Counted from the first letter of the stretch, positions 18,799-47,021 are shown. The stretch: DNA of 64,000 nt from Candidatus Eiseniibacteriota bacterium (GCA_963762255.1 CAVXKA010000003.1:384001-448000); one strand, 5' to 3'. Made by a program: numbers and translations. The notes: generated by a model not told the origin, from the sequence alone.

Positions 18799-18947
18799 TA
18801 CGCCCACGTGATCCGGTAGCCGGCCCGCTTGACCATGTCTGGGAAGTGCACTACGGAGTTTCGGTCCTTCTTCTGGTCTGTTTCGGACAGCTCTGCGTAG
18901 GGCACCAGCGCCGGATGCAACTTGTTCGCATCATCGCGTTCGTCCAC
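18798..18947 (-). CDS. 49-aa RyR-repeat mini-ORF or gene remnant, not in the ORF track
   Basis: GGAGG, then GTG, gives MDERDDANKLHPALVPYAELSETDQKKDRNSVVHFPDMVKRAGYRITWA*. It is paralogous to the C-terminus of the 23303-26203 protein, and its TAA overlaps the next ATG (TAATG). Confidence 0.7.
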   Translation of the reverse strand: MDERDDANKLHPALVPYAELSETDQKKDRNSVVHFPDMVKRAGYRITWA

Positions 18948-18973: not shown

Positions 18974-21900
18974 CTACGTGCCCTGATCATCGGTACCGAC
19001 GCCATCGGTCGGCGGTTCAGACCCAGCAAGGACTTCGATCGCGAACGGATTCAGTCGGACCGCCTTCGTGCAATGGGGGCAACATCCAAGGAGCCGGGCA
19101 TCCGAGAAAGCGGAATCCGGCAGGTCCAAGCATGGTGATTGACCCGGTCGGAGGGCGTCCATGTTGGATACGATGAGGGCCACCGCGGGGCTGGAGATTG
19201 CGGATTCTTGGTTACACCAGGGACAGTGGATGGAGAGTGAGCCCGTGCGCGCCGAGACCCGGGAAGCGGTGCAGATTCCGGGGCCAAGGGGGACACCCAC
19301 AAGGTCGTAAGTCGACACCTCACCGACTCTAGTCCCGCCAACTGCGCGGTTGAGACGGGCAGAGAAGGCAAGGGCCTCCCACGGCGCAGTCCCCTTCACA
19401 ACGGTCCGGGGCTGTCCGCTCTCCACGTCCCACACTCGCAGAGTCTCGTCGTCACTCCCCGACACCGCGCGGCGACCGTCCGGCGTCACGCTCACGCTCC
19501 TGACCCCCGAGCTGTGGCCTTCCAGCGTGCGCAGGCAGCGTCCGCTCTCCAGATCCCACACCCGCAGCGTCTCGTCGTCACTCCCCGACACCGCGCGCCG
19601 ACCGTCCGGCGTCACGCTCACGCTCCCGACCCCGAGCTGTGGCCTTCCAGCGTGCGCAGGCAGCGTCCGCTCTCCAGATCCCACACCCGCAGCGTCTTGT
19701 CCCAACTCCCCGATACCGCGCGCCGACCGTCCGGCGTCACGCTCACGCTCCCGACCCCGACGCTGTGGCCTTCCAGCGTGCGCAGACACCGCCCGCTCTC
19801 CAGATCCCACACCCGCAGAGTCCGTCGTCACTCCCCGACACCGCGCGGCGACCGTCCGGCGTCACGCTCACGCTCCAGACCGTCGACGCTGTGGCCTTCC
19901 AGCGTGCGCAGGCAGCGCCCGCTCTCCAGATCCCACACCCGCAGCGTCCCGTCGATCACTCCCCGACACCGCGCGGCGACCGTCCGGCGTCACGCTCACG
20001 CTCCCGACCCGCCAGCTGTGGCCTTCCAGCGTGCGCAGGCACGCGCCGCTCTCCAGGTCCCACACCCGCAGCGTCTTGTCCCAACTCCCCGACACCGCGC
20101 GGCGACCGTCCGGCGTCACGCTCACGCTCTCGACCCGCCGAGCTGTGGCCTTCCAGCGTGCGCAGGCACGCGCCCGCTCTCCAGATCCCACACCCGCAGC
20201 GTCTTGTCCCAACTCCCCGACACCGCGCGCCGACCGTCCGGCGTCACGCTCACGCTCCAGACCGTCGACGCTGTGGCCTTCCAGCGTGCGCAGGCACGCG
20301 TCCGCTCTCCAGATCCCACACCCGCAGCGTCTTGTCCCCACTCCCCGACACCGCGCGGCGACCGTCCGGCGTCACGCTCACGCTCCTGACCCCCGAGCTG
20401 TGGCCTTCCAGCGTGCGCAGGCAGCGCCCGCTCTCCAGATCCCACACCCGCAGCGTCCCGTCGTCACTCCCCGACACCGCGCGGCGACCGTCCGGCGTCA
20501 CGCTCACGCTCCCGACCCCCGAGCTGTGGCCTTCCAGCGTGCGCAGGCAGCGCCCGCTCTCCAGATCCCACACCCGCAGCGTCTTGTCCCAACTCCCCGA
20601 TACCGCGCGGCGACCGTCCGGCGTCACGCTCACGCTCCCGACCCGACCGAGCTGTGGCCTTCCAGCGTGCGCAGGCAGCGTCCGCTCTCCAGATCCCACA
20701 CCCGCAGAGTCCCGTCGTCACTCCCCGACACCGCGCGGCGACCGTCCGGCGTCACGCTCACGCTCCAGACCGTCGACGCTGTGGCCTTCCAGCGTGCGCA
20801 GGCAGCGTCCGCTCTCCAGGTCCCACACCCGCAGCGTCCCGTCGATACTCCCCGACACCGCGCGGCGACCGTCCGGCGTCACGCTCACGCTCCTGACCCG
20901 CCGAGCTGTGGCCTTCCAGCGTGCGCAGGCAGCGTCCGCTCTCCAGATCCCACACCCGCAGCGTCCCCTCGTCACTCCCCGACACCACGCGGCGACCGTC
21001 CGGCGTCACGCTCACGCTCCCGACCGTCGAGCTGTGGCCTTCCAGCGTGCGCAGCAACGCGGGCTTCGGGTTGTAGTGGATCTCAGAGGACCAGTGCTGC
21101 AGGAGCATGGGCACACCTAGGGAATAAATGGACTCAGCGACCACCGACCTCACGGGATCGCCAGGTGGACGGTTGAAGGCGTGCTGGGCCACGAACCCCG
21201 GCCACCCGCCGAACTCCAGTAGGGGGTAGCACTCCGATTCGACGAAGGACCCGAAGGCTCGCAATCGGTCGAGTCGCGTCGGGTTCTCGACGATCCGCCG
21301 GCACTCTTCCTCCAGCCGTTCATCGCTCCACGGCTCGACCGAAGGGATGATCTCCGGAAGCGGAGGCGTCTCCTCGCCCCCGTTCCACTTGCGAGCGTAG
21401 TCCACAATCTCTTGCGTCCATCGCGCTGCCCGCGCCTCATGGCGCTCCAGCTCCAGCACCTCCGCTTGCGCCTCGGGCAATGCGGCCAGGACTTGGTGAT
21501 AGTCGCGAATCAGATCGAAGATCTGGCCCGTCCGGATTCGGTCTTCGATGTAGCTCAGATCGGTCAGGAGCGTCTCCAGCTTGTCCCACTGGTGAGTCGC
21601 GATCAGGTGGGCCGGCAAGTGGGCCAGTGTGTAGGCGGATAAGTGCCTTGGCTGCGCCTCGAATTCCCGCCAGCATTGCCTGGCGAGCCGGTTCTGCCCC
21701 TCTTCCATCGACGTGGCGAAGTCGGCGCTGGCCTCGGGATCGGTCAGCCAATCGGCCAGGCTCTGGTGAAACAAGCGCCTCCCCCCGGCGTCGCCGCCCA
21801 AGAACTGCGATAGCGCGGTGAGGCCACGTTTCGTCGGGTGAGGGGCCATACCTGACGCCGCACGCAAGAAGTCGTCCGGCAGTGGCCCCGATGCCGCGAC

Positions 21901-23259
21901 CAGGCAATCCAGCAGCGGTAGCACCTCACTGTCGTAGGCGACACGGTCCTTGAATCGTTTGCGAAACATCGCATGATAGAGGCCGCCTAGTTTTCGGGGT
22001 AAGGCCCCTAGGTCGTCCAGGTCCATCCGCGTCCATGGGTCGCCTTCACCGAGTGCGTCAAGCGTCAGCCTGGCGAACAGGAAGTTGCCGTCCGCCAGTT
22101 CGGCCAACTTCGACGTCGTGCCCGCCTGGCGGGGAACCCTGCCGGACTCATAGAGTCCATCGAGCCGCCGTTTGATGTAGGCAGAAACATCGCGACGGTT
22201 CGGCTCGCCGCCGGCATCGAGATGGCGGCATTGAATGCCGTCCACTTCGAATCTCGCGAGGATGCTCCGGTCGGGCCGGCTTGTGACCACGATGCGCAAG
22301 AAGTCCGGCACGCGGGCCGCCGAATCGGCCAATAGATCCGCCAAGCCGAAGCCAATTTCGGCGACTGATTCATCCAGACCATCCACGATGAAGGTCCAGG
22401 GCTGATCCACCTGGAGCCGGTCGCGGATCTTGCGGAGCGGATCGGCAACCAATGTCCGGAAGAGCGACTCGGGGGGATCCGCCCAGTCGGGAGAGACGGG
22501 CAAGGCCTCCATCACCTCACGATAGGCCGAGAACTGGGCAGCCAGTTGATAGACCAGACCGCGAAGCCAAGAGTCAGGTCGACAAGACTCGATGATCGAG
22601 CGCGAGCAGAAATGGACGCCGCGCACATTGAGCCGCACGCTCATCTGCGCCGCCGCCGCGCTCTTGCCGAACCCTGGTTCAGCGGTAACCAGCAGCAAGC
22701 GAGAACCCGGGGCCTCCACCCACTCCTGAACTTGCTCGAAAAGCCATTCGCGGCCCGTGAAGCTGCCCCCGTGACGGGCGAGTTCTTCTTCGAAGTACCG
22801 TTGCTGCAGGTCGGCCCACCACACCTTGGATGGCCGCGCTGATCCCCAGTCTCGAAAGCCCATGCCTTTGCCGGCCGCAACTTGATCGATGGCGGCCGGA
22901 AGCTCTTTGAACGCCGTGTCGGGATCCGTGGCGGCGTCGATGTAGTTAAGGGACACCACCTGGATGGGAGGAGTCACGTCCGCGATGCGTACGGGGATGA
23001 TCAGCTTCTTGTAGGACTGCGCGAACAGGATCTCGTTTCGACAGAACCCTTCGGGGCGAAGGCTCCAGGGCGACAGTACGGCGATCAGCGCGTCGCTGTC
23101 CGTGATGCCCATCTCGATGCGGAGGTCAAACGGAGCACCGACGGGAATACCGTTCTCGACGTCGAGCCACGGTTCGTGGTTCTGCTGCCGCAGCCACTTA
23201 GCAAGCTGTCCTGCAAACGCCGTTGCGTCGTTGCGGCCGTAGCTGATGAAGATGCGCAT
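18974..23259 (-). CDS. TIR - NACHT-like NTPase - WD40 repeat NLR-like protein with C-terminal Zn-ribbon; frameshifted within the repeats
   Basis: TIR (IFISYGR..FCRNEI), FTGREWL, Walker A AEPGFGKS, Walker B FIVDGLDE, VVTSRP, LFHQSLADWL, 13 near-identical WD40 units, and a CPWC...CPHC tail. Confidence 0.88.
19413..21056 (-). repeat. Tandem array of 13 near-identical units of about 126 nt encoding WD40 repeats
   Basis: The motif gtggccttccagcgtgcgcag recurs 13 times at 125-128 nt spacing. Unit consensus: LRTLEGHSxxVxSVSVTPDGRRAVSGSxDxTLRVWDLESGRC. Confidence 0.95.
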
Positions 23260-23302: not shown

Positions 23303-26203
23303 CTACGACCTTGCGGAATGGGTACTGAGAGACGAACTCATGCGCGCCCACGTGATCCGGTAGCCGGCGAGCCCGACCACGTCCGGGAAGTGCAATACGG
23401 AGTCCCTGTCCTTGTCCTGGTCGGCGTCGGGCAACTCGGCGTAGGGGACAAGCGCCGGATGCCGCCTCGCGGGGTCATCGCGCTTCTTCCCGTGGCGCCA
23501 GCCGCTCCGGAGCCGCTGATCCATCCAACCGTCGTGCTCGGCCTCGGCCAGGCGCTCCAAGTGGTACTCGAGATGCTTGCGGATGGCGGCAACCGACTCA
23601 CTCGATGCCTCCTCACTAGATGCCTCGCCCCCCTCCAGACGCAGTCCCGCAAGCGCGAGGGCCGCTGGAATGCGCCGAGCAGCCGCGCGGTTGTCTTCTT
23701 TGTCTACAGAGTCGAGATCCGCGTACGGCTTGTCAAAACGGCGTGCGACCTTCTGCTGCTTGTCTCCGGACAAGATGAGGTAGTTCTTGTGGATCGCCGC
23801 CGCGAGAGCTTCTATGACATCGTCCTGGCCGAAAGGCGCGTGCTCGTCAAGGATCTTGTCGAAAGGCGGCAGGTTGACGTGCATCCCGAGCTGTGGCCGA
23901 GGCGGCAGGGATGAGCGCCGGATGGCCTGCCCTTCGTATGAAGGCTTGAGCGACTGCACAAGCTTCTCGACGGACCGTGCGCCGTGAGTGTACTTGGGCA
24001 CTCGCAGAAGCGCCGCGAGCAGCTCGGGGTCGAAATCGAGCCGAGCATCCTTCGGGACACCCAAGTGCGCTCGAATCAGCAGCGCACGACGAAGGGGCGC
24101 ACAAACGTCGTTCTTTTCGGACATCGGGTCGTCACTACCATCCACGTCAGCAAGACCTTCGCTTCTTGGGTTGGGACCGAGTACGTTGAGATAGGCATCC
24201 AGGCGACTGTGGAAGTCAGGACCCTTCTTGAGTTCGAACTTTCGCCACGCGTCCATGTCGAATCGGGTTGTACCGGGCTTTGGCGGTCCAAACTCCTCGA
24301 ATGTGTGGCTTGTGGCGCCGGCGAAAATGAAGACGCACTTCCCGACGGCGTGACTGATCTGCCCTTCCTGGAAACGCCCGTCCTGCATAGGGGCGAGGAG
24401 AAACTGCAGCCAGTCATACTCACGCGAATCGAATTCGTCCCAGAATACGACCGGAGTGGCTCCACCCAACACAGCGTCGCGGACTTGGTGGAATGCCCCA
24501 ATCAGGTCTCCCACATCCTTGAACTGCGACAGATTGAACTCCCGCCACGCTTCCTTGCCGAAGACGCTGTTGGCGAGTTGGTGCACCCCAAAGGACTTCC
24601 CCGCACCTGGCGGGCCAAAAACACCGATAGAGAGCGGCCTCTTCGCCCCACTGTCCTTCTGGTACTGAATCATCAGCCGTTCGATGCTGCGAAGCGCCTC
24701 GATCTCGAATCGGTCGGCGGTAAGGAGTTTCCCGAACCGTGCATGCGGCAATCGCGCGATGGCGGCTTCACCCCAGAGCACCGTCTGAGTTGCCAATCCC
24801 AGCAAGGACGGCAAATCAGTGGAGCCGAACCGTGATTGAGACATCTCGACGATCTGCCAGACTCTCCTCTGGTCGGGGTCCTTCGGACTCCCGGCATACG
24901 GAGCCCGTTCTTTGTCAGTCCACGGCACCGGTGTCTCCGCGAACTCGTTGCTGCCGGCCACAATGACCTCGGCCAGGCGCTTCGCTGGAAACCCCACCGG
25001 CAATTCCTCGGCAATGGGATGCGGATGCTCTGAAACGAGACCGTGACCCAGTTTCCGAAGATCTCTCATGCCACAGAGTCCGGCCTTGACGGCCGCGCTG
25101 ATCTTGGGCTTCTCCGGCCCGCGCATGATGGCTCGGACCAAGGCCGCGACCATGCAGGACATGTAGCCAAAGGCTTCACCGGGGATCGAACGAGCCCACG
25201 CACCCTCCGCGCCATCGGCATCGAAGACCAAAGTCGCATGTGGCTCCGGTCCGGTGTTGTCAAGCCAGAGAGCGCCATCAGCAGAGAATGTGACAATGAG
25301 GTGCTGGGGCCTTGATGCCATCTCCCGCAAGTTGCGGTCGGATCCCAGCGCCTTATGCAACTCCATGACCGTCCGTTCCCAGGAAAGCCCCGAACCCAAC
25401 TGAGCATGCTCCTGCCTCAGCTCATGCGCGGAGAGGACGACAATCAACTTCTTCGAGTGTTCTTCCTTCAATCGGTGCCACAGATCTCCCTGGCACACCG
25501 GGGCGCTCATCTTCAGGATAATCCACTCGGGCTGCTTCCCCGCTCCCGGGGGAAGCAACCAGCACTCCTCGGCGGCCTGATGACGAAACATGAAGCCTGC
25601 ATCGTCCAGCACAAGCACCCTTGGAGTCGCGGGTGACGGGTCATCAAGCTCCGGCGTGCAATCGGTACAGGGGCCAGTTCCGTCATCGGGGGAGGATTCG
25701 TCATGACCGTAGCCCATCAGGAGGTCCGCACGCCAGACCTGCTTCGGATTCCGGGGACTTGTCGGATCCAGAGGAAACGGCTTCCAGACCGCAAGTGCGT
25801 GATGGCCGCAGGGAGTCTTGTCCGCAGGGGGCATCTTGAGCGGGCACTCCACTTCCCACTGAGCCTCCGGTGCCGGTTTGTGGTTTGCCAGTTCGCCTCT
25901 CGCCTTTACCAGCGCCGTCTCTGCCTCGCTAATCTCCAGTTCCACTCCTCCGTTGCACCGGAGTTCCTCGAGCTTCGCCTCGGCATCCTGGACGGCCTTC
26001 TCTCTTTCCTCCTTCTCATTCCCCGCCACTTTCTTCGCACGTGCAATCGCGGCGTCGATGAGACGAGTCAGCGCCATCGCGCCCCCGGGCTCTCGGACTA
26101 CCCTCACCCCCTGCCGTTCAACGGCAGAAGCAGTGTGGCGCTTGCCTTCATAGATATGGTGATCCACTACCACGTCGCCAGTGACGAGAATCTTGTCTGT
26201 CAT
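23303..26203 (-). CDS. Ribokinase/PfkB-like N-domain + P-loop ATPase + RyR repeats
   Basis: PfkB/HldE-like start KILVTGDVVVD and PGGA; Walker motifs GPPGAGKS and VVFWDEFD; RyR motifs AEAEHDGW..GWRHG..RDD..RHPALVPYAEL..KDR. GGAGG RBS before MTDKIL. Confidence 0.8.
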   Translation of the reverse strand: MTDKILVTGDVVVDHHIYEGKRHTASAVERQGVRVVREPGGAMALTRLIDAAIARAKKVAGNEKEEREKAVQDAEAKLEELRCNGGVELEISEAETALVKARGELANHKPAPEAQWEVECPLKMPPADKTPCGHHALAVWKPFPLDPTSPRNPKQVWRADLLMGYGHDESSPDDGTGPCTDCTPELDDPSPATPRVLVLDDAGFMFRHQAAEECWLLPPGAGKQPEWIILKMSAPVCQGDLWHRLKEEHSKKLIVVLSAHELRQEHAQLGSGLSWERTVMELHKALGSDRNLREMASRPQHLIVTFSADGALWLDNTGPEPHATLVFDADGAEGAWARSIPGEAFGYMSCMVAALVRAIMRGPEKPKISAAVKAGLCGMRDLRKLGHGLVSEHPHPIAEELPVGFPAKRLAEVIVAGSNEFAETPVPWTDKERAPYAGSPKDPDQRRVWQIVEMSQSRFGSTDLPSLLGLATQTVLWGEAAIARLPHARFGKLLTADRFEIEALRSIERLMIQYQKDSGAKRPLSIGVFGPPGAGKSFGVHQLANSVFGKEAWREFNLSQFKDVGDLIGAFHQVRDAVLGGATPVVFWDEFDSREYDWLQFLLAPMQDGRFQEGQISHAVGKCVFIFAGATSHTFEEFGPPKPGTTRFDMDAWRKFELKKGPDFHSRLDAYLNVLGPNPRSEGLADVDGSDDPMSEKNDVCAPLRRALLIRAHLGVPKDARLDFDPELLAALLRVPKYTHGARSVEKLVQSLKPSYEGQAIRRSSLPPRPQLGMHVNLPPFDKILDEHAPFGQDDVIEALAAAIHKNYLILSGDKQQKVARRFDKPYADLDSVDKEDNRAAARRIPAALALAGLRLEGGEASSEEASSESVAAIRKHLEYHLERLAEAEHDGWMDQRLRSGWRHGKKRDDPARRHPALVPYAELPDADQDKDRDSVLHFPDVVGLAGYRITWARMSSSLSTHSARS

Positions 26204-26290
26204 GCGGTCACCTCCGGGGGGAATGATACCAACGCCCACCCAGCCTGTCGTGAGTCGGATTTTGAGGAATGCCGGGGCCGGAGAATCGGC

Positions 26291-26977
26291 TTACTTGGTA
26301 CCGGGCCCGGTGGAGCCCCCACCCACCACCATCCCCACCCTCTCCCCCACATCCATCATCACCATCTCGGGAAAGTCAGCATCCCGTAGGTACGCCATGA
26401 CCGATGCGACGCCAATAGACACCCCCGCCATCGCCACATGCGGGTCGGGCGAATCCGCACAGGTTCCTCCCCAGGACTCGTCATCGCCGTAGAGGGTCGA
26501 CAAGTACTCCTTCAATCCCTCCCGTCCCCGCACCGTGTGACAGCGCACCACGGTCCCCCCGATCCGAACGTCCACCAGCAGACCCAGACTGCGATCCTGC
26601 AATAGCGCCTCGGCAGCCCGCCGCCGCGATTCCATCGTATCCATCCCGAACAGCACGATCGGTCCTGAAGGCCCAACCGCGCCGTCGGGGTACTTCGCGG
26701 GGATCCCCTCGATGGCCACGCCGGGGCACACCTCGTGGATCAACCGCGGCAGCGCCTCCACCTTCAACCGCCGGCGACGCACGTCCGCAGCGCGATAGAA
26801 CTGCACCCCAAGATTTCGCGCGGGATCCAGACGGTCATGGTCGTAGACGCGAATCGACCGGATGCCGGCCATGGCAAGCGCAAGGCACGCGAATGAACCG
26901 GTGCGCCCCGCCCCGATCACACTGACACGCGCCATTTCGAGCCTGCGCTCGAACTGCGACGGTCGCTGGCGGCTCAT
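26291..26977 (-). CDS. ThiF/E1-family ubiquitin-like activating enzyme
   Basis: Motifs VSVIGAGRTGS, VYDHD, NLGVQFY, KVEAL, MDTMESR, VDVRIG and YLSTLY..ESWGGTC; no Zn-binding CxxC pairs. ATG overlaps the upstream TGA. Confidence 0.88.
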   Translation of the reverse strand: MSRQRPSQFERRLEMARVSVIGAGRTGSFACLALAMAGIRSIRVYDHDRLDPARNLGVQFYRAADVRRRRLKVEALPRLIHEVCPGVAIEGIPAKYPDGAVGPSGPIVLFGMDTMESRRRAAEALLQDRSLGLLVDVRIGGTVVRCHTVRGREGLKEYLSTLYGDDESWGGTCADSPDPHVAMAGVSIGVASVMAYLRDADFPEMVMMDVGERVGMVVGGGSTGPGTK

Positions 26978-27711
26978 GTCCCACTCCCCTGTTTTTCGCA
27001 TGGCTCCTCCGGAATCGCCTGGTATCGCACAATGCGGATGTGTCGCCGCACATGCGGCGGGATCTCGCCGAGGCGTCGCCGCACGATCGTGCACCCCACC
27101 CGCTGCGCTGCGCGCAAGACGAGCGGATGACACGGCCATGTGCCGTCGTCTGAGAACGCCACGGCGGGGCGTCCCACCGCCGCAAGCACCGCCGCCAGTG
27201 CGATCCTCTCGTCGGGCATGATGTACTCGAGCTGCCGTCGCTCTCGTTGGGATAACGCGCCGTAGATTCCCCCACCGACGCCCAGTCCGAAGGATTCAAT
27301 GCGCATCGGGTGACCAGATGCCGTCAGGAACTCGGCTCGAGAGGCAATCTCCGTGAGGCGGGCAGGCGGTGCGAGGTACGCGCGCACGCAGACGCGCTGG
27401 ACGCGCACGCCCGGATACTGTCGCTCGCGATCTAGGATCTTGAGGCCGGTCACGAACCGCGCTGGGTTCGAGCCATCCACGTCGGGCCTCTCGCACCACG
27501 TTTCGTCACCCGGCGGTGATACGAGTCGGATGGCGGTTGGCACGAATTCTTCCCAGGCCGGCCGCGCGTTCGCGTGATCCTGCAACGCGAATGCTAAAGC
27601 CGCCGCATTCCCGCCATCGGACTCCGGCTCCACCCGCACCGACGCCGCCACGAACGCCAGAAACTGCCGAAGCGCGAATACGCCGCGGTCGCCGGGAAAG
27701 TCGTTGGCCAT
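26974..27711 (-). CDS. Hypothetical protein (245 aa) in the Ubl operon
   Basis: ORF MANDFPG.. overlaps its neighbours on both sides (TGATG and ATGA), with a GGAGG RBS; no recognised motif. Confidence 0.7.
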   Translation of the reverse strand: MANDFPGDRGVFALRQFLAFVAASVRVEPESDGGNAAALAFALQDHANARPAWEEFVPTAIRLVSPPGDETWCERPDVDGSNPARFVTGLKILDRERQYPGVRVQRVCVRAYLAPPARLTEIASRAEFLTASGHPMRIESFGLGVGGGIYGALSQRERRQLEYIMPDERIALAAVLAAVGRPAVAFSDDGTWPCHPLVLRAAQRVGCTIVRRRLGEIPPHVRRHIRIVRYQAIPEEPCEKQGSGT

Positions 27712-28313
27712 CAGAGATTCCTCCGAGCCCAGGCAAGGGCCACTAGAACAAGACCGCACAGGTCGAGACGCTCGACGGCAGTTTCGAGGAGAGGGGTGGC
27801 CTCGCCTCGGCATGCGCCGTGACGGCCCGGCTGGATGAACATCGACTCCTGCCCCGCCGCAGTGGACCTGCGAATGAAGACCGGGAAGTGAGGAGCCGGT
27901 GGAAGCGGAAGACAGATCTCGAAAGCGTTTCCAGGGGCTGAGGCGCCTTCGGCCACAAGCGGGCGCACGGTCGCGGTCACCGCGGCCTCGGCCACCACCA
28001 ACCGCTCGAACGGGACTCCATCAAGCAGGACCATCAACCGATTCAGCTCCCGCCTGGCGCGAGGGAGAGGAAACCGGCGCGCGCGCTCGACGCGGCGCAT
28101 CGCGAGCGTCACATCCGCCATGTCGAGATCCCATACCTCGGGCTTCGGACCTATCTCACCGAGCAGAGGCTTGCAGCACGTGAGGAACTCGCGTTGCGCC
28201 TGAAGACCGCGAGCCGCCGCGCCGCAGAACTCCTGCAGGAACGCCGCCAGAACCTCGCGCGCTTGCTCAATCGACTCCCGGGGAGACCCCGGTTGAAGAA
28301 CCACTTCTTCCAT
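27711..28313 (-). CDS. Hypothetical protein (200 aa), possible divergent E2-like conjugating enzyme
   Basis: ORF MEEVVLQPG.. has a helical N half and a C half FEICLPLP..PVFIR..GACRGEA..LLE..DLCGLV; it lies between the Ubl and E1 genes. Confidence 0.6.
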   Translation of the reverse strand: MEEVVLQPGSPRESIEQAREVLAAFLQEFCGAAARGLQAQREFLTCCKPLLGEIGPKPEVWDLDMADVTLAMRRVERARRFPLPRARRELNRLMVLLDGVPFERLVVAEAAVTATVRPLVAEGASAPGNAFEICLPLPPAPHFPVFIRRSTAAGQESMFIQPGRHGACRGEATPLLETAVERLDLCGLVLVALAWARRNL

Positions 28314-28407
28314 GGCGTGTCGTGCGCTGGATGGACCGGCGCCGGCGGCAGCGGAAACCGCCACCGGCGCCGGTGCGCATTCCTCCCTTGTTTGTTGTGC
28401 TCGCCGA

Positions 28408-28659
28408 TCAGCCGCCGCGGATCCGCGGGACGTAGGCGAGCGTGACGTCGTGGGTGTGGTCCACCGGCTTGTCGAGCTCGGTGGGCGCACCATCCAGGAA
28501 CAGATCCCAACCCTTGTCGCGCGGCGTCGTACCGGCTGCGCGGATCAGGTCGGCCGCGGTGACCCCTTCGAGCAGATCAACGCTGGCCTCGACACCTTCA
28601 CCGAGCACCCGGACCGTCGCACGATGCGGTCGGGCACCTCGTTCGGGAAACGTCCCCAT
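28408..28659 (-). CDS. Ubiquitin-like (beta-grasp) protein ending in Gly-Gly
   Basis: 83 aa with the pattern VRVLG..VTAADLI..WDLFLDG..VTLAYVPRIRGG*; strong AGGAGG/GGAG RBS. Confidence 0.85.
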   Translation of the reverse strand: MGTFPERGARPHRATVRVLGEGVEASVDLLEGVTAADLIRAAGTTPRDKGWDLFLDGAPTELDKPVDHTHDVTLAYVPRIRGG

Positions 28660-28747
28660 ACTCCACTCCTTCCTCCTGAACGATCGGGCTCCGCGCCTTC
28701 GCGGGCGCGAAGGGCTACGGCAATGCCCGCTTGCGAGGTATGGATCC

Positions 28748-28762
28748 GCAAGAGCGATGCCA
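28748..28762 (-). promoter_or_regulatory. Sigma-54 (RpoN) -24/-12 promoter of the Ubl operon
   Basis: Minus strand reads TGGCATCGCTCTTGC, i.e. GG-N10-GC matching TGGCACG-N4-TTGC, about 90 nt upstream of the Ubl start and next to a sigma-54 activator gene. Confidence 0.75.
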
Positions 28763-28892
28763 TCGGTCGGCCGAGCGCGTGATGTGTGCGCAACACGATG
28801 CTGCGCACGTGACTCAGGCGGAGGGTGGAGGGACGGTCAGAGCTGCCGGGTTGCCTTGATCTACCCGATCTTCGGGTGAACAAGGCCGACGA

Positions 28893-29942
28893 TCAGGCGG
28901 GCTGCTTGGGGGGGCGCTTGAGTCCCGCGCGACGCATGCGGTCGCGCACGGTGTCCGGCTTGACCTTGAGCAGGCGCGCGGTTTCGGAGACGTTCCAGTG
29001 GCAGAGTCGCAGGACGGATTCCAGATAGCAGCTCTCGAATCTCTCGGCCGAGAGATCGTGTCCCCCGCCGTCGATTCGCGAGTCGGACGCGGCGCGGGGC
29101 CTTCCGAACGCCGCCGGAGGCAGATCGCCGATCTGGATTACTTCGCGCCGGCCGGCATGGTAGAAGGCCCAGATGACGACCTTCTCCAGCTCCCGGATAT
29201 TGCCCGGCCAATCGTACGCGAGAAGAGATTTCAACGCCGCCCGCGAGAAACGTCGAGCGCGATACGTCTTTCCTGCCTCGCAGGCGAGGCGGGAGAGGAA
29301 CGTCTCTGCGAGGCCGGGGATGTCCTCCCGCCGTTCGTTCAGGCCCGGCATCTCGATCGTGAACGTGCTGATCCGGAAGAAGAGGTCATCGCGGAACTCG
29401 CCGCGATCGACCCGTTCGGTAAGGTCGCGGTTCGTCGCCACAAGCACGCGCACGTCGCTCTTCACTTCGCGGTTCCCGCCGAGGCGCCGAAACCGCCGGT
29501 CCTGGAGAAAGCGCAACAACATCACTTGAGTTAGCGGATGGATGTCGCCGATCTCATCCAGAAAGACGGTGCCGCCGTCGCTTCCCTCGATGAGCCCGAC
29601 GCGACGCTGCCGGCCGGCATCGGTGAAGGCATGGGCCTCGTGCCCGAAAAGCTCGCTGTGGACGAGGGTCTGGGAAAGCCCTGCGACCGGGATGACGCAA
29701 AACGGCGCGTCCTTGCGTCGGCTGAGCCGATGGATCACTTCGGCCAGGAAGGACTTGCCTGTACCGCTGCTGCCGGTGATCAGGACGGTCTCTTCCGTCG
29801 GAGCCATCCATGCCACCGCGCGTAGCACCTTGCGCGCCGCTTCGCTCTTCCATACCGGTGGTAAGAGGCTAAGGTCCGCGCAGGCGAGTGCCTCCACGGT
29901 GCGGGTGACGATCTCGGACTTGGGTTCGAGGTTGGGGGCCAT
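28893..29942 (-). CDS. Sigma-54-dependent enhancer-binding protein with no N-terminal sensory domain
   Basis: Motifs GSSGTGKS, SELFGHEAHAFTDA (GAFTGA variant), GGTVFLDEIGD, ATNRDL, FRDDLFFRI and WPGNIREL, plus a C-terminal Fis-type HTH (NVSETARLL). Only about 25 aa precede the AAA+ region. Confidence 0.92.
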   Translation of the reverse strand: MAPNLEPKSEIVTRTVEALACADLSLLPPVWKSEAARKVLRAVAWMAPTEETVLITGSSGTGKSFLAEVIHRLSRRKDAPFCVIPVAGLSQTLVHSELFGHEAHAFTDAGRQRRVGLIEGSDGGTVFLDEIGDIHPLTQVMLLRFLQDRRFRRLGGNREVKSDVRVLVATNRDLTERVDRGEFRDDLFFRISTFTIEMPGLNERREDIPGLAETFLSRLACEAGKTYRARRFSRAALKSLLAYDWPGNIRELEKVVIWAFYHAGRREVIQIGDLPPAAFGRPRAASDSRIDGGGHDLSAERFESCYLESVLRLCHWNVSETARLLKVKPDTVRDRMRRAGLKRPPKQPA

Positions 29943-30017
29943 GGTGAGGGGGATGTTCCATGTTTCGGGGATGAGGTGTCAACCTGAGGGGGGACTGCGC
30001 AGTGCCGCCTGTCTGGC

Positions 30018-32883
30018 TCAGAGTCCTCCTGTCGATTGACGGAAGATCGAGACGACCTCAGGGCCGAGTTCCTGAAGCCTATCGAGGATTTCGGAGCGCG
30101 ACATGTCCATTTGCCTCAAGAGCGCCGCGTAGTTCATGACGGCTGCCTGCAGGTTCGGGTGCGGATGACCCGTGGCACGGGTGAACTGGAGAAGGATGCT
30201 CACGTGGCGACGACTCAGCGGTTCGGCCTCCACCAGCCGGTTCGTGTCCTGGAGCAACTGAGCTAGGTTGTTGAGGGCGCTCGCGACATTCGGGTGATCC
30301 CGTCCGAGCCTGTTCTCAAAGATCGCCAGTGCGCGGCGCACGAGGGGTTCGGCCTCTCCCTGACGCCTTGCGCCCTTGAGCAAGCCCACCAGGTTGTTAA
30401 GGCGGATGGCGACCTTGGGGTGGTCGTTCCCGTACCTCTGTTCGTCGATCACCAGCGCGCGGCGCATGAGGTCTTCAGCCTCCGCCGGCCGGTTCGTGAC
30501 TTGGAGCAAGAGAGCCAAGTTGCTGAGAGCGGTCGCGACGTTTGGATGGTCCCGTCCACGGATTCTCTCAAAGATTGCAAGCGAGCGGCGGTAGAGAGGC
30601 TCAGCCTCTCCCAGCCGGCCCGTGGCCTTGAGCAATTGGGCCAGGCTGTTGAGAGCCATCGCGACCTGGTGTTGATCACCGCCACAGCCCTGCTCGCGAA
30701 TCGCCAGCGCGCGGCGCATGAGCGGTTCGGCCTCCGCCAATCGGTTTGTGGCGTAGAGCAAGCCCGCCAAGTTATTGAGGCGGATGGCGACACTTGGGTG
30801 GTCGCTCCCGGAGCTCCGCTCGTCGATCGCCAGCGCGCGGCGCATGAGCGGTTCGGCCTCCGCCAGCCGGTTCGTCGCCTGGAGCAATTGAGCCAGGTTG
30901 CTGATAGCTGTCGCGACCACTGGTTGATCCTCTCCGAGGTCGCTCTCCGAGATTGCCAACGCACGGCGCAAGAGCGGTTCGGCCCGTGTCCACTCAGCTA
31001 GGGTGTACCACCATAGCCCCACTTGACTGAGCAGCCATGCCGCCCATGGATAGGCCCCCTCTGCCCATGCCTCGGCCAAGGCATCCAGCGGCTCCAACTC
31101 CCAGCGCGCCTCCTGCCACCGCGTCGTCGTCTCGAGAACGACGACCCGGTCGCGCACGAAATTGAGTACGCGCTCTCGCCTGGCGGCCAGATGATCAGCC
31201 GACAGGCTCTGCTGCATCAAATCCTGCACCAACCGATGCACGCGCACGACGCGCGCCTCGCCTTCTTCGCCCTCTCCGCGGGTGATGAGCGCCAGCCGCC
31301 AGAGCATGCGGCAGATCCGATCCCACGGCTCCTCGTACCCGGGGGACACGGACACGCCGATCTCGGGGAAGTCACTCGCCACCAACTCCCGCAGCCACGG
31401 CAGCGGCACCGCATCAGGGGCCAGAAGTGCCGCGTACTCCATCGCCCGGCGCCCCGCCGGTTCCAGTCCCTCAATGGAAGGCCCGAGGACGGCGTCCAAC
31501 CGGCGCTCATGATCGTGCTGGCGAAGGGTTACCTCGCGATCCGCGGCCAAATCATCCAGCGCTTCGAGGTCTTCCAGCCCGAGCCGCTCCAGGAAGGCCG
31601 GGTACGTCACGCCGGCATGCACCTCCAGCCACGCCGCCACCAACTCCACCGCCAATACGAACCCGCCCAGCCGTCTCACGATGCGGTGCGCCGCATCACG
31701 TTCGGCGTCGTCCGCGAATGGTCGGTGCTTCTCCAGCAGATCCACCGCGTCCACTTCCGGAAGCTCGCCCAATGTGACCCAGTTGCCATGCGCCCCGGCG
31801 GGAGGCGCGAGGCGCGTGGTCGCCAGCAGGTGAAGGCTTGGCCCCAAACTGGTGAGGGCATCTGTCTGCCTGGGGGACAGCAGGTCGAGGCCGGTCACGT
31901 TGTCCAGCACTAGGAGGATGCGTCCATGGCTATCAAGTCGTTGGCGGAGACAGTCGTAGATCGCCGCGAAGTGCCGATCTGGGCTCTTGCGCTCCTCATC
32001 GCTGATCCGGTCCCGAAACCGATTGCCCAGGATCAACGCCGCATCGCGTAGGCTCGTCTTGCCCTCGCAATGCACCAGAAACCGCCCCCCCGGATACGCT
32101 CCTGCGAAAGCGTGGGCATAGGTGAACGCGAGCTCGGTCTTGCCGATGCCGCCCAGACCGTGCACGCCGGTGATGACCCCTGCCCGGTCGTCCTTGAGTC
32201 GCTCGCGCAGGTCGAGTAGCTCGTCCAGGCGCCCGGAGAAGCGCCTGTTGTAGGCGGGTACATCGCTTTCGCTCTCGGCCGCAAGATGAACCTGCGTGGC
32301 GCGCTCATCGAGGTCGCGGGCCAGTGCGGCCAGAACGCAGCGCAAGTCGTCCTGACGCAACGCCTCCAACCCAGTGCGGTAGAACGGTTGCACGGCATTG
32401 AACTGCCGCCGGCGCAGCTGCTTCACCACCGGCGCGGCGGTCTCGATGAACGCCTCGTGCGGTAGCGGCCGCCCGCACAGCTTCGCTACCTCGCGCGCAA
32501 CCTCGTGCTCGTCGATCGCGCTGTCGAGCCCCGGTACCTCGACGATGTAGATGGGCGCCGCACCGGCGGAGAGGATGTGCTTAGCGATCTCCAGGTCGAT
32601 CCAGGTGCGCCACTCGCGCCGGCACCACTCGCTGGCGAAGTAGTTCGGCGAGAGGAAGGCAACGAACAGCCGCGAATGCGCCAGTCCGTCGTGGATGCGG
32701 AGCCGCCAGTCGTCCAGGCCGTGGATGTCGATCCTTGTCGAAGAAGCAGGTCAGCGAGCGTCCACCGGTGAACTTCCGGTGCTCCGCGAGCAGTTCCTCG
32801 ACAAAACCGCTGATCCATCCCTCGCGGTTGTCAGCGCGGGCGTAGGAGACGAAGAGATCGTAGCGATCGTGGTCAAGCGGCAT
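30018..32883 (-). CDS. TIR - NB-ARC-like STAND NTPase - TPR protein; one frameshift near 32730
   Basis: TIR YDLFVSYARAD..FFDK | DIHGLDDW..SPNYFASEWCRREW continues in frame into the 803-aa ORF. Motifs GLGGIGKT and LLVLDNV, then about six 42-aa TPR units (VA..LNNLA.LL..TNRL.EAEPLMRRALAI). Confidence 0.88.
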
Positions 32884-32974
32884 GGGCGACGGCCTCCAAC
32901 GTTAACGACCTGCGCTTCTTGGACTACACGCACCGCCCTGGCAAGCGCGTCCACTGGCGTCGCATGTTCACAGG

Positions 32975-33847
32975 TCACAGGAATGCCAGCAGCGTCGCGA
33001 CCCCTTGACTCTGGAAGTACTGCAGGATCGTCCTGGTGCCCGGACTGTACCCGTCCCATAACAGGATCGCCAGATCCGACTTCACGCAGAACAGAGCGTC
33101 TCGTTCGCTCGGCCCCTTCATGCCCCTTGGAATCTGTTCCAGGGAGGCATCAAGAAACCCGAGCTTGCCTCCCCTGACAAGCTCTCGAAGTTCTGGCGCA
33201 CAGTCAAAACGATGGTAACCGACGGTAGTGACCCGCTGACTCTGCTCGACCAGGAAGCGCGCCGCGGCAATGTCTATGGTTCCAACCGCCCCGACGAGCC
33301 ACTTAGTCGTCTCCGAGAGATACGGTGTCAGAACGCGTTCCACCCTCCGACGCGTGACCACTTCGTCTGCGGTCATCGTGCCGGTCACAGAGATCGTCCG
33401 CTGCTCCGCAGCCTTCACCGACGCCAGTTCTGTCGCGCCCGACCCCTTCAGTGCATAGCGGGAGAGAGTTTGCCGAACGGCTTCAGCCAGTCTCTCCGCA
33501 AGCCGGGCCTCGCTTCCGATCGAGTACTTCAGGACACGGTGGGACTTCAGATCGAAGGGGAGTTCGTCTATGTCTTGCCCGATGAGGATCGTCGGCTTGC
33601 CCAGGGCCATTGCATAGCCTGTCTCCCACATCACGTTCGGGGTGTGGCCGCTGACGTTGGCTATGCAGAACGCGGCTTCATGGAGACCGATGAGGATATC
33701 ATCGGTGATGCGTCCCGCCGACTTCACGTCCTTCAGCCAGTAACACTCGAAGACCGCCCCCGGAACCGCCGAAGTCGCCACCTTCTTGACAACGTCGAAC
33801 ACGGGATCAAAAGCCGTTGCGAAAGGCATGATGACAAAGCACTTCAT
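32975..33847 (-). CDS. Nucleoside 2-deoxyribosyltransferase/TIR-like domain fused to a SLOG-like domain
   Basis: NDT-like CFVIMPF, PNVMWETGYAMALGK and LPFDL; SLOG-like ISVTG..VGAVGTID..ERD..SDLAILLWDGYSPGT. Confidence 0.75.
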   Translation of the reverse strand: MKCFVIMPFATAFDPVFDVVKKVATSAVPGAVFECYWLKDVKSAGRITDDILIGLHEAAFCIANVSGHTPNVMWETGYAMALGKPTILIGQDIDELPFDLKSHRVLKYSIGSEARLAERLAEAVRQTLSRYALKGSGATELASVKAAEQRTISVTGTMTADEVVTRRRVERVLTPYLSETTKWLVGAVGTIDIAAARFLVEQSQRVTTVGYHRFDCAPELRELVRGGKLGFLDASLEQIPRGMKGPSERDALFCVKSDLAILLWDGYSPGTRTILQYFQSQGVATLLAFL

Positions 33848-33978
33848 GTTAGCTCCCGCGAAGAGCCGATTCGGTGGTCGACTACTTCATCAATGCACAC
33901 CGAGGACCCCGCCTGTGATCTTCCCCAGAATAGCCATCCGTGCAGCATCGTTCGTGACCACCTGCGCATGCGCCTCCC

Positions 33979-37313
<3,335 letters not shown>

Positions 37314-37316
37314 GGC

Positions 37317-40228
37317 TTATTCCTCGGTCTCCCCGAACAGTGCCGCCCTGCTCGGCTCTCGGCTTGCCGCCCTCGCGGGCGAGCCGCGCGATCTCCGGCC
37401 AGCTCTGGACGAGGCCGTTGTAGGCGAGCGCCTCGGCCGCGCGCTTCTTGCGCTCGCAGAGGGTGTAGAGGCGGTAGGCCAGCTCGCGGGCGATCTCGGC
37501 CTTGGCGCCGAGCTTGGCGACGAGCTCCGCCGCCGCGCCTTCGCCGCCGCTTCGAGCACGCGGATCAGGTGGTGGACGATCTCCCACGCGGTGAGGCGCG
37601 GGTCGGTCGCCGGGTCCCAGTCGGCGGGCAGCTCGTCGGGCTCGCAGCAGCCGCACCTTGCCGCGGCTTCGATTCGAGGATGCCGGCCTCGACCATGCCG
37701 GCGACGCTCGTGTTCTTGGCCTTGGAGAGCTGTTCGGCCACGCCGTACTCGCCCTCGGCGAAGCCCGACTGCTCGAACCAGGCCAGCGCCCAGCGGCTGT
37801 CGGCGTCGAAGTCGCCCTCCTGCTCGGCCAGCGCCTCGTCGAGGGTCTGGTTGATGAGCGCCAGCGCCTCGCGCACGGTGAGCGGCTTGCCCTCGGCGTC
37901 GAGCACCTTGGCGTAGCGGGTGTAGACCGCCATGCCCGGGCCGATGGCCGCCTGCGCCAGGTCCACCGGCGCGATGTTGCCGCGCTGCAGGTGGGCGAGC
38001 GCCGCGGGCAGCTCGGCCTTGAGCGCGGTGACGAACTCGCGGCGCGTGGCGGTGGGCGCGTCGGCGGCGCGCGGGCGGCAGACGAGGACGATGCTGGAGG
38101 CGAGGGCGTTGGTGTCCGATGCCGCTCATGCGGTCTGCCAGTCTCCGTCCGCATCGGCCAGGTGCCGCTGATGGCGAAGCCGGCGCGGATCACCGCGTCG
38201 AGGAAGGTCTCCCAGCCGGTGCTCGCGGTGCCGTCGTCGCCGTCGCTCTCCGCCTGCTTGAAGGCGTAGTAGATGGTGACCGGGAAGGCCGGGTGCGCCT
38301 GCTCGGCGAGGCGGTGCATCGCCTGCGTCATGCCGTCGAGGAAGAACGCCTCCGCCTTCTCCTTGCTGCCGTGGCGGTAGGGCGTGGCGACCAGCTCCTC
38401 GGCCTTGGGCACGGCGAGCGTGGCGAAGAGGTCGGGGAAGACGGGCCTCAGCGAGCGGCGCAGCCAGACGTAGAAGAAGTCCGACAGGTCGGCGTAGCCG
38501 ATGTTGTCGTAGTAGGGCGGATCGGTGGAGACGACCTTGTCCGCGACTGATCGTCTGGTGCTGCGCATCGGCTTGCTGACGCGATGCCCGGCGACGTGCG
38601 CCGGCAAGCGCTTCGAAGCACCTTCGCGATCCACTCGACATGCTGCCACGAAGTTCCCGCTCGAGCTCTGCAGAACGGATTCGCCTCCGCGAAGTCCCAG
38701 GTCATCGGAATCGCCTGCCGGCCGAAACGTGCTGCGACGATGCTCGTCCTGTCTGGCATCCAACGTGCAGAGCGACGTGTCCGTAGTCGCAGCCTTGCTC
38801 AACGCGCGAACGCCAGATACACCGCCACCGCATCGGCGTAGGCGGTGGCGCCGGTGCCGCCGTCGCGCAGGGGCTTGCCGTCGTCGGGCAGGCCGGCGGC
38901 GAGCGCGTCGCGCTTCACCCGCTCGCGCGCTTCCTGCACCAGGTCGGAGAAGGTCGTCAGCGCCACGAGCTGGCGGGGGGTGAAGAGGTCGCCGCACGTC
39001 GTCATCCCGTAGTGGCTTCACGCCGAGATACTGCGTGCTGCCGGAGATCGTCGACCTCCGGCTTCCACGTCCGGCTTCGCCTTGCGCGCAACCGCCTCCA
39101 TGCTCCGGCGTCGGCGCGAGATAGACCCGCCCGCGCTCGCCCTCGGCGACGATCGCCATCAGCCGCGCGCCCATGCGCCCGGCCTTGCCCTCGGCCTTGA
39201 TGTAGTCGCCCGCGATCGGCGCGCCCGACATCAGGCACCGGAAGTTCGCGCCGCGCGCCAGCTTGGTGCCGCTCTTCGCCGCCTCCGCATCCTTCGGCTT
39301 CCCCACCTTCACCGTGAAGCGGTAGCCGCCGTCCTCGATCACCGGCTCGACGTACGCCTCCTTGCCCGCCTTGGTGGAGAGCATGAAGGTCGAGGCGAGC
39401 GGCACGTCCACCTGCGCGAAGGCCGGGTTCGGGCTCTTCACCGTGCGCGCCCAGAGCCAGGCGATCACGGTGAGCTTCTGGCCGACGTACGGCTTCAGGT
39501 CCGGCCGCTCCTTCGCCATCTCGGCCGTGACCTCGACCTTCGGGTAGAGGTGGCCGATGCGCTTCTCGGCCTCGTCGCGCATCCACTGGCCGTAGTAGCG
39601 CACGTCCTCGGCGAGCCCCTGCGCGCCCTTCCACTCCCGCGCGATGAGCGTCTTGTCCTCGCGCGCCTCGGGGTTCACCGGCGGCTTGCCCGCGAACTTC
39701 GGCGGGATCTCGATCATCGCCTTGTTGATCAGCACCGCCACCGGGTTCAGGTCGCTGGCGTAGCTCTCGAGCCCCAGCCGCTGCGCCTCCAGCGGCAGCG
39801 CCCCGCCGCCGGCGAAGGGGTCGTGGAAGGCGGGCAGCTTGTGCCGGTCGAACAGCTCCTTCGCCCGCGGATGGTCGGCGTTCTCGGCGCAGGCGCGCCG
39901 CCAGCTCTGCCAGATCTCGTCGCGCGCCTGCCTGCAGCACCGTCTCGTTGGTGGTGTTCTCCCACAGCACCAGGTCTTCGATGATGCGGAAGAGCCGCTG
40001 CCGCTCCTTCTCCTGCTTCTTCTCGGTCGGGAAGAGGTCCGGGTGCGCCGACGGGTCGTCCACCATCTGCGCGAAGATCACCGCCCGCGCCGCCGCCAGC
40101 GGCCGCCGCGCCCACCACAGGTGCAGCGTGCTCGGGTGCCCGTGGCGGATCGACTTCTCCCGCGCCGAGGCCTTGTTGATGGCCTCGAGCGGCAGGGCGA
40201 CTTCGATGAGCTTCTTCTTCGGGGTCAC
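37317..40228 (-). CDS. DUF1156-family adenine DNA methyltransferase; several frameshifts
   Basis: Motifs [54 protein letters not shown] and YNGLVQSW, spread over shifting frames. Confidence 0.88.

Positions 40229-43432: not shown

Positions 43433-47021
<3,589 letters not shown>

Follow-up and report, generated by a model that had tools for sequence, protein, structure and literature searches.

Within a 64,000-nucleotide stretch of a Candidatus Eiseniibacteriota genome (GCA_963762255.1, CAVXKA010000003.1:384001-448000; hereafter the window), the minus strand carries a compact cassette that comprises, in order, a sigma-54 activator gene, a -24/-12 promoter-like motif, a gene for an 83-residue ubiquitin-like protein (Ubl), two open reading frames (ORF2 and ORF3) and a ThiF-type gene for an E1-like enzyme (E1). 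With slightly better than even confidence, we read this cassette as a variant of the bacterial Ubl-conjugation systems with a conflict-related role. On this reading, the cassette has the gene order of the Bil antiphage operons and is built from smaller, different parts: a minimal cysteine-bearing E1, an E2-like ORF2, and ORF3 in the slot of the JAB peptidase. An initial annotation of the locus had proposed protein tagging rather than a sulfur relay, and this proposal is supported as far as computation reaches, every computational test run having favoured it. Three points go beyond that annotation, namely the Bil gene order, a model of ORF3 without a known fold, and a downstream gene, encoding a protein with AAA and RyR domains (AAA-RyR), that accompanies the cassette in a related strain.

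Architecture of the cassette and putative sigma-54 control

The activator, the motif and the four co-oriented genes were all located on the minus strand, as first annotated. The activator (28893-29942, minus strand, 349 amino acids) is a sigma-54 enhancer-binding protein that matches Pfam Sigma54_activat (E 6.9e-56), AAA_lid_14 and HTH_8. Its layout is PspF-like, an AAA+ domain followed by a Fis-type helix-turn-helix, and because only ~31 residues precede the AAA+ domain it has no receiver or sensor domain. The PADLOC model RtcR_PspF2 matches at E 7.9e-85, over the AAA-HTH part of the model only. The sigma-54 contact motif reads HAFTDA, a variant of GAFTGA in which the F and T are retained, and the D at position 5 is also found in 5 of the 19 other readable activators of the genome. 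Genome-wide, D replaces the second G of GAFTGA in 6 of 20 readable contact motifs, the cassette activator included.

A motif search of the window placed a sigma-54 -24/-12 promoter-like motif, TGGCAT-N5-TTGC, at 28748-28762 on the minus strand. This sequence, TGGCATcgctcTTGC (28762-28748), is the sole match to TGGCAC-N5-TTGC with at most one mismatch in the 64 kb. The motif carries weight because of its position, directly downstream of the activator gene and ~90 nucleotides upstream of the Ubl start; the count expected on the coding strand of the 233-nucleotide activator-Ubl intergenic stretch, computed from the rate in shuffled windows, is ~0.007. A repeat search further revealed an inverted repeat with 10-nucleotide arms and a 3-nucleotide gap (28786-28808, no strand assigned, 90% complementary), which sits 24-46 nucleotides upstream of the -24 element and is a candidate activator binding site. 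A perfect 8-bp hairpin (28696-28713, minus strand), identified by the same kind of search, falls within what is predicted to be the 5′ leader of this operon's Ubl gene. The 4.1-Mb genome contains one rpoN gene, and the sigma-54 activator domain is strongly matched 23 times, which points to wide use of sigma-54 by the organism. The GG-N10-GC motif, the putative cognate activator and the genomic rpoN are together the features that a sigma-54 operon would have, and they agree with the link to RpoN drawn in the initial annotation; the induction itself is what these sequence features would predict.

The Ubl gene (28408-28659, minus strand, 83 amino acids) was called as an ORF with a strong Shine-Dalgarno sequence upstream and an RGG-stop end. 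It is separated by 94 nucleotides, without overlap, from ORF2 (27711-28313, minus strand, 200 amino acids), the candidate E2, whose start was fixed by the agreement of homologues; the open frame extends further up, to 260 amino acids. ORF3 (26974-27711, minus strand, 245 amino acids), defined as an ORF and by the alignment of its homologues, belongs to no recognised family, and the minimal E1 (26291-26977, minus strand, 228 amino acids) matches Pfam ThiF at E 3.8e-15. The stop/start overlaps reported earlier among the last three genes can be read directly from the sequence, as 1 nucleotide between ORF2 and ORF3 (TGATG) and 4 nucleotides between ORF3 and E1 (ATGA). No intrinsic terminator was found in 26000-30200, and Rfam and tRNA scans of the whole window found nothing.

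A single-domain E1 and its putative Ubl partner

E1 consists of a single ThiF-type adenylation domain that lies within the E1-like superfamily and outside any named family. It scores under every NCBIfam cut-off, the best being ThiF at 49 bits versus 159. When its family profile was compared with the PDB, PaaA, MoeB, UBA3, ThiF, UBA7 and UBA6 were matched, followed by MccB, UBA5, TcdA, Uba4, BubCD, Cap2 and Atg7, with most matches restricted to the nucleotide-binding half. The C-terminal half alone gave no useful match in the PDB. The genome has another ThiF-family gene, of 403 residues, at a different location, which makes the cassette E1 an extra copy.

The enzyme had been described as lacking CxxC pairs and as having one candidate catalytic cysteine, and both statements hold. 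There are four cysteines and no CxxC, and C173 is the sole invariant cysteine, conserved in 12 of 12 aligned sequences even when two distant relatives at 25-28% identity are included. Y163 is invariant in the nine close sequences only and is replaced by F in the two distant ones. The alignment with MoeB stops 7 residues before C173. We equate C173 with the crossover-loop cysteine because of this position and because the reactive crossover-loop cysteine of ThiF, MoeB and UBA5 presumably lies just past the end of the alignment, a placement that the alignment itself does not confirm.

The Ubl ends in PRIRGG directly before the stop codon. It matches Pfam SAMP2 at E 1e-4 (23.1 bits, under the cut-off of 27), gives weak SAMP2 and ThiS matches in NCBIfam, and has four weak matches in the PDB (E 0.046-0.23), all to SAMP2 or a related PF1061 protein. 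One other readable copy, on a metagenome contig (L001), is 67% identical, also 83 residues long and likewise ends in RGG-stop; the C-terminal GG is thus kept in 2 of 2 copies. The adjoining ORF2 copies are just 42% identical, below the 67% of the Ubl, and dN/dS ratios come to 0.27 (Ubl) and 0.48 (ORF2). Lysines are absent from the L001 Ubl, and the window Ubl has two, neither conserved.

The same PDB comparison brings up a second activity for a lone adenylation domain, in which E1 would modify the C terminus of the 83-residue protein in the manner of PaaA or MccB, with ORF2 and ORF3 as accessory or immunity proteins. PaaA is the top PDB match of E1 by sequence (E 1.7e-14), and MccB is matched at E 2.6e-9. 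These matches, however, span the shared nucleotide-binding half only (profile positions 10-108 and 14-116), and the substrate is conserved, 83 residues long and SAMP2-like with a GG end, rather than a short precursor peptide. Family scans also revealed no exporter or protease in the cassette, and we consider peptide modification very improbable.

ORF2 and its predicted docking on E1

No family in Pfam, NCBIfam, PHROGs or PADLOC accounts for ORF2. In 6 of 6 aligned sequences, C30, an H165-G-x-C168-R-G loop and a C-terminal WARRNL are invariant, the loop reading H165-G-A-C168-R-G in the window. The AlphaFold2 model is confident, with a predicted local distance difference test score (pLDDT) of 83.4 and a predicted template modelling score (pTM) of 0.80. 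Three N-terminal helices, with a helical hairpin, are followed by a five-strand beta-meander, the cysteine loop and two C-terminal helices. Two chains of the ubiquitin E2 variant (UEV) domain of TSG101 align with this model at Z scores of 6.1 and 6.0 (root-mean-square deviation (RMSD) 3.6-3.7 Å, 110-112 residues), and they are the only whole-model, low-RMSD rows among the 50 listed when the Foldseek list was re-scored. The weak Foldseek rows also include four E2 chains. A profile search of the PDB gave chance-level rows only, and a wide VIA search barely probed the C-terminal domain because helical hairpins filled its list. Together, the model supports a UBC/UEV-like core in ORF2 and does not decide the matter. 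A lead from the ESM Atlas towards an integrase SAM-like protein was not adopted, given few shared features and low recognition.

The initial annotation had suggested modelling E1, ORF2 and the Ubl together. In this complex prediction, with ORF2 as the scored partner, ORF2 was predicted to dock on E1 with a score of 0.72, versus 0.01 for the best of three controls. Among solved complexes, 58 of 80 attain this mark, against 2 of 110 for mismatched pairs; the calibration is only rough here because our own alignments were used and three chains were submitted. The E1-ORF2 runs concur in at least 75% of contacts, and the partner pLDDT is at least 82. On the ORF2 side, the predicted interface is formed by the tip of the helical hairpin (residues 36-64) together with residues 162, 173-174 and 177; on the E1 side it comprises residues 5-17, 40-41, 88, 102-106, 129-132, 197 and 199.

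ORF3 in the position of the deconjugase

Pfam, NCBIfam, PHROGs and PADLOC leave ORF3, too, without a family. Among 1.84 billion representatives, a full HMMER search returned 29 clusters, and across 28 aligned sequences L153, A171, S187, P193 and P218 are invariant and D79, P115, R125, W192, R211, R229 and Y230 nearly so. This alignment contains no conserved His or Cys. The AlphaFold2 model is confident (pLDDT 87.1, pTM 0.85), and when compared with 48,161 solved chains its best Z score is 3.4, to an unrelated domain. A profile search of the PDB gave no rows. Foldseek returned nothing at E ≤0.001 for ORF3 in the PDB or BFVD; such a lack of matches does not in itself prove a new fold, as the tool warns. 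In keeping with the expectation that the cassette has no recognisable JAB peptidase, JAB families were matched by none of its five proteins, and ORF3 has neither an invariant His nor a close structural match. An AcrVA2-like assignment from the ESM Atlas rests on few shared features and was not adopted; the Atlas scores for ORF2 and ORF3 are 0.87-0.91, with low recognition.

Comparison with known systems

Bil operons have the gene order Ubl-E2-deubiquitinase-E1 in the accessible text of their description (10.1101/2023.09.26.559546), and the order of the cassette, with Ubl, candidate E2, third protein and E1, is that of BilABCD of the type I and II antiphage operons, as far as that text describes them. 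Both have a Ubl with a single beta-grasp-type domain (a putative, sequence-based assignment for the cassette) and a C-terminal Gly, both lie in defence islands, and in both the E2, here a candidate, has an invariant Cys with an invariant His nearby. Despite these similarities, the parts differ. BilD is described, in the accessible text, as a multidomain E1 (IAD-AAD-CYS) with a Zn site, whereas the cassette E1 is a single 228-residue domain without CxxC. BilC belongs to the JAB peptidases, to which ORF3 shows no match; the BilB His is C-terminal to its Cys (C138, H151), whereas H165 of ORF2 precedes C168; and, unlike in Bil, the helical hairpin of ORF2 is predicted to dock on E1. No Pfam or PADLOC E2 or JAB model matches the cassette. 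Finally, the cassette has putative sigma-54 control, whereas some Bil operons use CapH/CapP.

The Bub operons (class 6E, DUF6527) resemble the cassette in other respects. According to the accessible part of their description (PMC11601596), they too combine a homodimer-type E1 (a probable one in the cassette) with a single adenylation domain, an E2 that has diverged (a candidate in the cassette) and an additional protein, BubE, other than a JAB, and they are, like the cassette, a suspected defence system. BubCD is also among the PDB matches of the cassette E1 (E 2e-7). By contrast, Bub is described there as using Tyr/Ser oxyesters, with no Cys in the crossover loop of the E1, whereas C173 and C168 are invariant in the cassette. 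Bub proteins are fused (Ubl-E2, JAB-E1 or E2-E1) according to the same report (PMC11601596), and the cassette genes are separate. BubE, described in the same text (PMC11601596) as a Zn-binding beta-sandwich with a Ser-His dyad, differs from ORF3, which has no invariant His or Cys, and Pfam shows no DUF6527 match in the cassette proteins at E up to 1. Type II CBASS (Cap2/Cap3) has an E1-E2 fusion neighboured by a CD-NTase and a JAB, whereas E1 and ORF2 are separate genes here; PADLOC E1-E2 models match only the first ~90 residues of E1 (E 1.9e-8 or weaker), and no CD-NTase family was matched among the neighbours scanned.

Sulfur-carrier pairs suggest a different chemistry. In ThiS-ThiF, MoaD-MoeB and the archaeal SAMP-UbaA, as in the cassette, a ThiF-type adenylation domain is paired with a small protein ending in GG. 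By analogy, E1 could form a thiocarboxylate on the Ubl, Cys30 and Cys168 of ORF2 could act as a persulfide relay, and ORF3 could insert the sulfur into a metabolite or RNA. ThiF and MoeB are indeed the nearest named families of E1, the weak matches of the Ubl include ThiS, JGI labels on the homologues read molybdopterin or thiamine adenylyltransferase, and ORF2 has two invariant cysteines (C30 and C168). Against this, the equivalog cut-offs are all missed, the ThiF and MoeB scores being far under them in NCBIfam, as with the 49 versus 159 bits above, and E1 has no Zn CxxC. The absence of thiG, moaE, cysteine synthase and rhodanese genes that had first been remarked upon also stands: the selected long ORFs scanned around the cassette gave no family match to ThiG, MoaE, CysM, rhodanese or desulfurase, or to any other sulfur-transfer or -insertion partner. 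A 403-residue ThiF-family protein is already encoded elsewhere in the genome, the distribution of the cassette is extremely sporadic and its setting is a defence island. The cassette also has two extra conserved proteins, one of them E2-like in its model, with a UBC/UEV-like core and predicted docking on E1. A sulfur carrier is, on this evidence, distinctly unlikely.

The nearest relatives of E1 found outside its own family are encoded on three phage contigs (L004-L006, IMG/VR). They are ~221 residues long, 27-30% identical over near full length and have the matching Cys. The phage cassettes, at L004 1-2800 and L006 5400-8298 for example, comprise a Ubl, a 352-414-residue Cys-bearing protein with an HPH...C motif, and a JAB-motif protein and E1 in either order. 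As in the window, a small protein with a near-C-terminal Gly comes first and a Cys-bearing protein second. Unlike the window, the phage cassettes encode a JAB-like HSH...S..D motif in one of their proteins, the protein in second place has 352-414 residues and no significant similarity to ORF2, and no sigma-54 activator was seen in the part of the flanks examined. The HPH...C and JAB motifs were read by eye, Pfam and PHROGs assigning these proteins no family. The phage Ubl ends in KGA and would therefore need trimming. In an hhalign comparison that was not significant, Cys168 of ORF2 was paired with the Cys of the L004 protein, and ORF3 showed no similarity to the phage JAB-motif protein (E 0.44). 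Because Pfam and PHROGs recognise none of the scanned phage proteins except E1, these cassettes seem to form a phage Ubl system not described before. Scans with single proteins for further relatives in phages recovered just the queries and one weak fragment.

None of operon classes 6a-6e in the accessible part of Iyer et al. 2006 has the make-up of the cassette. Our literature search found no description of a sigma-54-controlled Ubl cassette, with the reservation that supplementary tables of the Bil and Bub preprints could list related operons, and no reported link between sigma-54 activators and antiphage systems or defence operons. According to the initial annotation, no described system is known to have this combination, and neither the family libraries nor the literature searches returned a description of it.

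Distribution and linkage

The cassette is rarely encountered: among 206 phylum genomes, the source genome alone has ORF2 and it alone has ORF3 (1 of 121 among good-quality genomes). Neither the ORF2 nor the E1 alignment retrieved a true relative from 185,579 species genomes, L003 matching over 16 residues only, and a tblastn search with E1, ORF2 and ORF3 found nothing in 72,556 plasmids or in 50,697 phage records. In word-based searches, 5.8 billion clusters yielded four matches for ORF3, the top one (P0001) being the window's own protein, five relatives of ORF2, and nine close and two distant relatives of E1. All cluster-search relatives of the three proteins are from metagenome sources.

Conservation of gene order, another check proposed with the first description, could be followed in metagenomes. 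The metagenome scan returned L001 alone, which carries Ubl-ORF2-ORF3 in the order of the window. Five more contigs (276865, 45865, 7772, 2298 and 3251 nucleotides long) appear to carry different cassette homologues, equal contig size suggesting that these homologues share a contig. Cassette linkage would accordingly recur on six metagenome contigs, with five of the six resting on equal size. In addition, contigs from four metagenome runs, derived from a related strain (at least 80% likeness), cover 23345-29984 and thus span all five genes: the activator, promoter region, Ubl, ORF2, ORF3 and E1 are covered, and the downstream gene more patchily. Past 29984, three of these contigs go on for ~1.9 kb in sequence that does not resemble the window, and because they diverge there the NB-ARC-TPR gene is not the upstream neighbour in the related strain. 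The stretches 20500-23200 and 30000-34000 have partly little or no cover in the four runs, which is no evidence of absence except where the contigs diverge. RNA-library contigs of two runs cover the operon, and we make no claim of expression since DNA carry-over is possible.

These data bear on whether the tagging, if it occurs, serves immunity at all. The same Ubl conjugation could act in stress or regulatory tagging, as in SAMP or Pup, switched by sigma-54. Sigma-54 regulons usually concern stress and metabolism, and the 23 strong activator matches suggest that this genome is no stranger to them. ORF2 and ORF3 have no PADLOC model, the literature search connected no sigma-54 activator with an antiphage system, and a neighbourhood alone is weak evidence of function. 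On the other side, the occurrence in 1 of 206 phylum genomes and the changed upstream neighbour in the related strain suggest an accessory, mobile gene set rather than a core regulatory pathway, and the cassette lies among Hma, TIR, STAND and SLATT genes. We regard a non-immune tagging role as unlikely, and favour conjugation with a conflict-related role.

A model for cassette function and its weak points

A working model for Ubl conjugation by the cassette can be outlined as follows. The PspF-like, sensor-less activator would drive the sigma-54 promoter ahead of the Ubl gene, and the operon would remain off as long as the activator is neither released nor made. E1 probably forms a homodimer, as do other E1s with a single domain, and would adenylate Gly83 of the already mature Ubl, which would then be loaded onto Cys173 in the region corresponding to the crossover loop. 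The UBC/UEV-like ORF2 would dock on E1 by its helical hairpin, receive the Ubl on Cys168 and transfer it to a target, alone or with ORF3. Translationally coupled to both neighbours and occupying the JAB slot of Bil, ORF3 would most likely be a specificity or E3-like factor, or a new kind of deconjugase. Given its place in a 35-kb defence island, the cassette may act against phages or in another kind of conflict, with AAA-RyR as a possible partner.

Several observations count against this model. We infer conjugation, induction and defence from sequence features and models, and it is the neighbours alone that suggest defence. The beta-grasp-type character of the Ubl is a tentative assignment from weak SAMP2- and ThiS-type matches. 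The protein to which E1 is closest by sequence in the PDB, PaaA, modifies peptides and is not a Ubl E1, and V or A replaces, throughout the E1 family, the Arg of the NxxRQ stretch of MoeB, UBA3 and PaaA, which makes adenylation competence uncertain. For ORF2, Foldseek on the PDB gave nothing at E ≤0.001; the tool treats Z scores of ~6 as common, and matches to helical hairpins rank above those to TSG101. The loop with H165 and C168 is flexible (pLDDT <50), and hhalign of ORF2 with two of the phage Cys-bearing proteins is not significant (E 0.41 and 0.62). In the predicted complex, neither C168 nor C173 is among the confident contacts and no Ubl contact was reported. As for the putative promoter, shuffled windows contain 3.79 motif matches each, so the motif alone is not rare window-wide, and the H at position 1 of the activator contact motif is found in 0 of the 19 other readable activators.

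A bolder version of the model is conceivable and on balance doubtful. The cassette would then represent an unrecognised class of Ubl immunity, in which the Ubl passes from the crossover-loop cysteine of the 228-residue single-domain E1 to a hairpin-docked E2, a new-fold protein takes the place of the JAB isopeptidase as a new kind of E3 or deconjugase, sigma-54 and the sensor-less activator hold the cassette silent and infection releases it, and AAA-RyR serves as sensor or effector.

Bacterial Ubl conjugation, as in CBASS Cap2, Bil and Bub, is a young field, and so far every new family has come with a chemistry of its own and another path towards the eukaryotic system. If the cassette conjugates, it would be among the smallest complete E1/E2/Ubl sets, and its E1 and E2 would dock via a helical hairpin instead of a ubiquitin-fold domain. 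With ORF3 would come a conserved component for which no structural relative was detected and which might represent a new deconjugase or ligase fold. Sigma-54 control, if true, would be relevant to the silencing of immune systems that are toxic or costly.

The downstream AAA-RyR gene and the defence island

A possible sixth gene (23303-26203, minus strand, 966 amino acids) follows E1. Its ATG stands behind a GGAGGTG Shine-Dalgarno sequence, and its product comprises a 480-residue N-terminal region without a family, an AAA ATPase domain (a weak Pfam match) and a C-terminal RyR domain (Pfam RyR, E 1e-15). The gene begins 87 nucleotides past the E1 stop, with no terminator between and a sigma-70-like motif in the gap. 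In the related strain its cover is collinear and more diverged than the rest. Some match to AAA-RyR is present in 14 of 206 phylum genomes, and PADLOC has no model for it. Two near-full-length homologues (43% and 38% identity) in other phylum genomes lie beside unrelated genes, without a Ubl cassette, and the notion of AAA-RyR as an obligatory part of the cassette was dropped on this account. The protein may work with the cassette without being tied to it, or may be a stand-alone conflict gene.

The surrounding island spans ~35 kb, roughly 16.6-51.5 kb of the window, with metabolic genes on both sides and dips in G+C inside. The TIR-NLR neighbours initially reported are present: the island encodes TIR-NACHT-WD40, NB-ARC-TPR, SLATT and WD40 proteins, a TIR-like effector, and HmaC and HmaB with DUF1156. 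Further genes encode AAA_15/21 and AAA_14-DUF4143 proteins and a 1404-residue AAA-TPR-TIR protein. The Hma-type defence system (34188-40228, minus strand) comprises PADLOC HmaC (E 3.5e-203, with a DUF499 match), the methylase HmaB (E 5.3e-221) and an ORF whose N terminus is DUF1156; these ORFs overlap, which may reflect frame problems or a wrong choice of ORF.

The other genes noted in the island are all on the minus strand, and at two places a gene may be interrupted. The TIR-NACHT ORF (20758-23259) contains one WD40 repeat and then an Arg/Gly-rich, seemingly out-of-frame translation, and a 285-residue WD40 ORF stands apart at 18974-19831; the WD40 sensor region may have been split or have undergone a frameshift. 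A 100-residue ORF (32581-32883) has a TIR-like start by eye, to which Pfam assigns no family. The NB-ARC-TPR ORF (30018-32429) follows closely downstream in a different reading frame, and the two may form a split TIR-NB-ARC-TPR gene. A 290-residue protein (32975-33847) gives a weak nucleoside 2-deoxyribosyltransferase match (Pfam E 7e-5) and a PADLOC TIR effector match (E 4.3e-11). The 1404-residue AAA-TPR-TIR protein (47252-51466) is STAND-like and adjoins a 1119-residue protein (43662-47021) without a Pfam family. At the left edge of the island, a 708-residue protein (16681-18807) combines 560 N-terminal residues of no family with a C-terminal SLATT_1 domain (E 8e-9).

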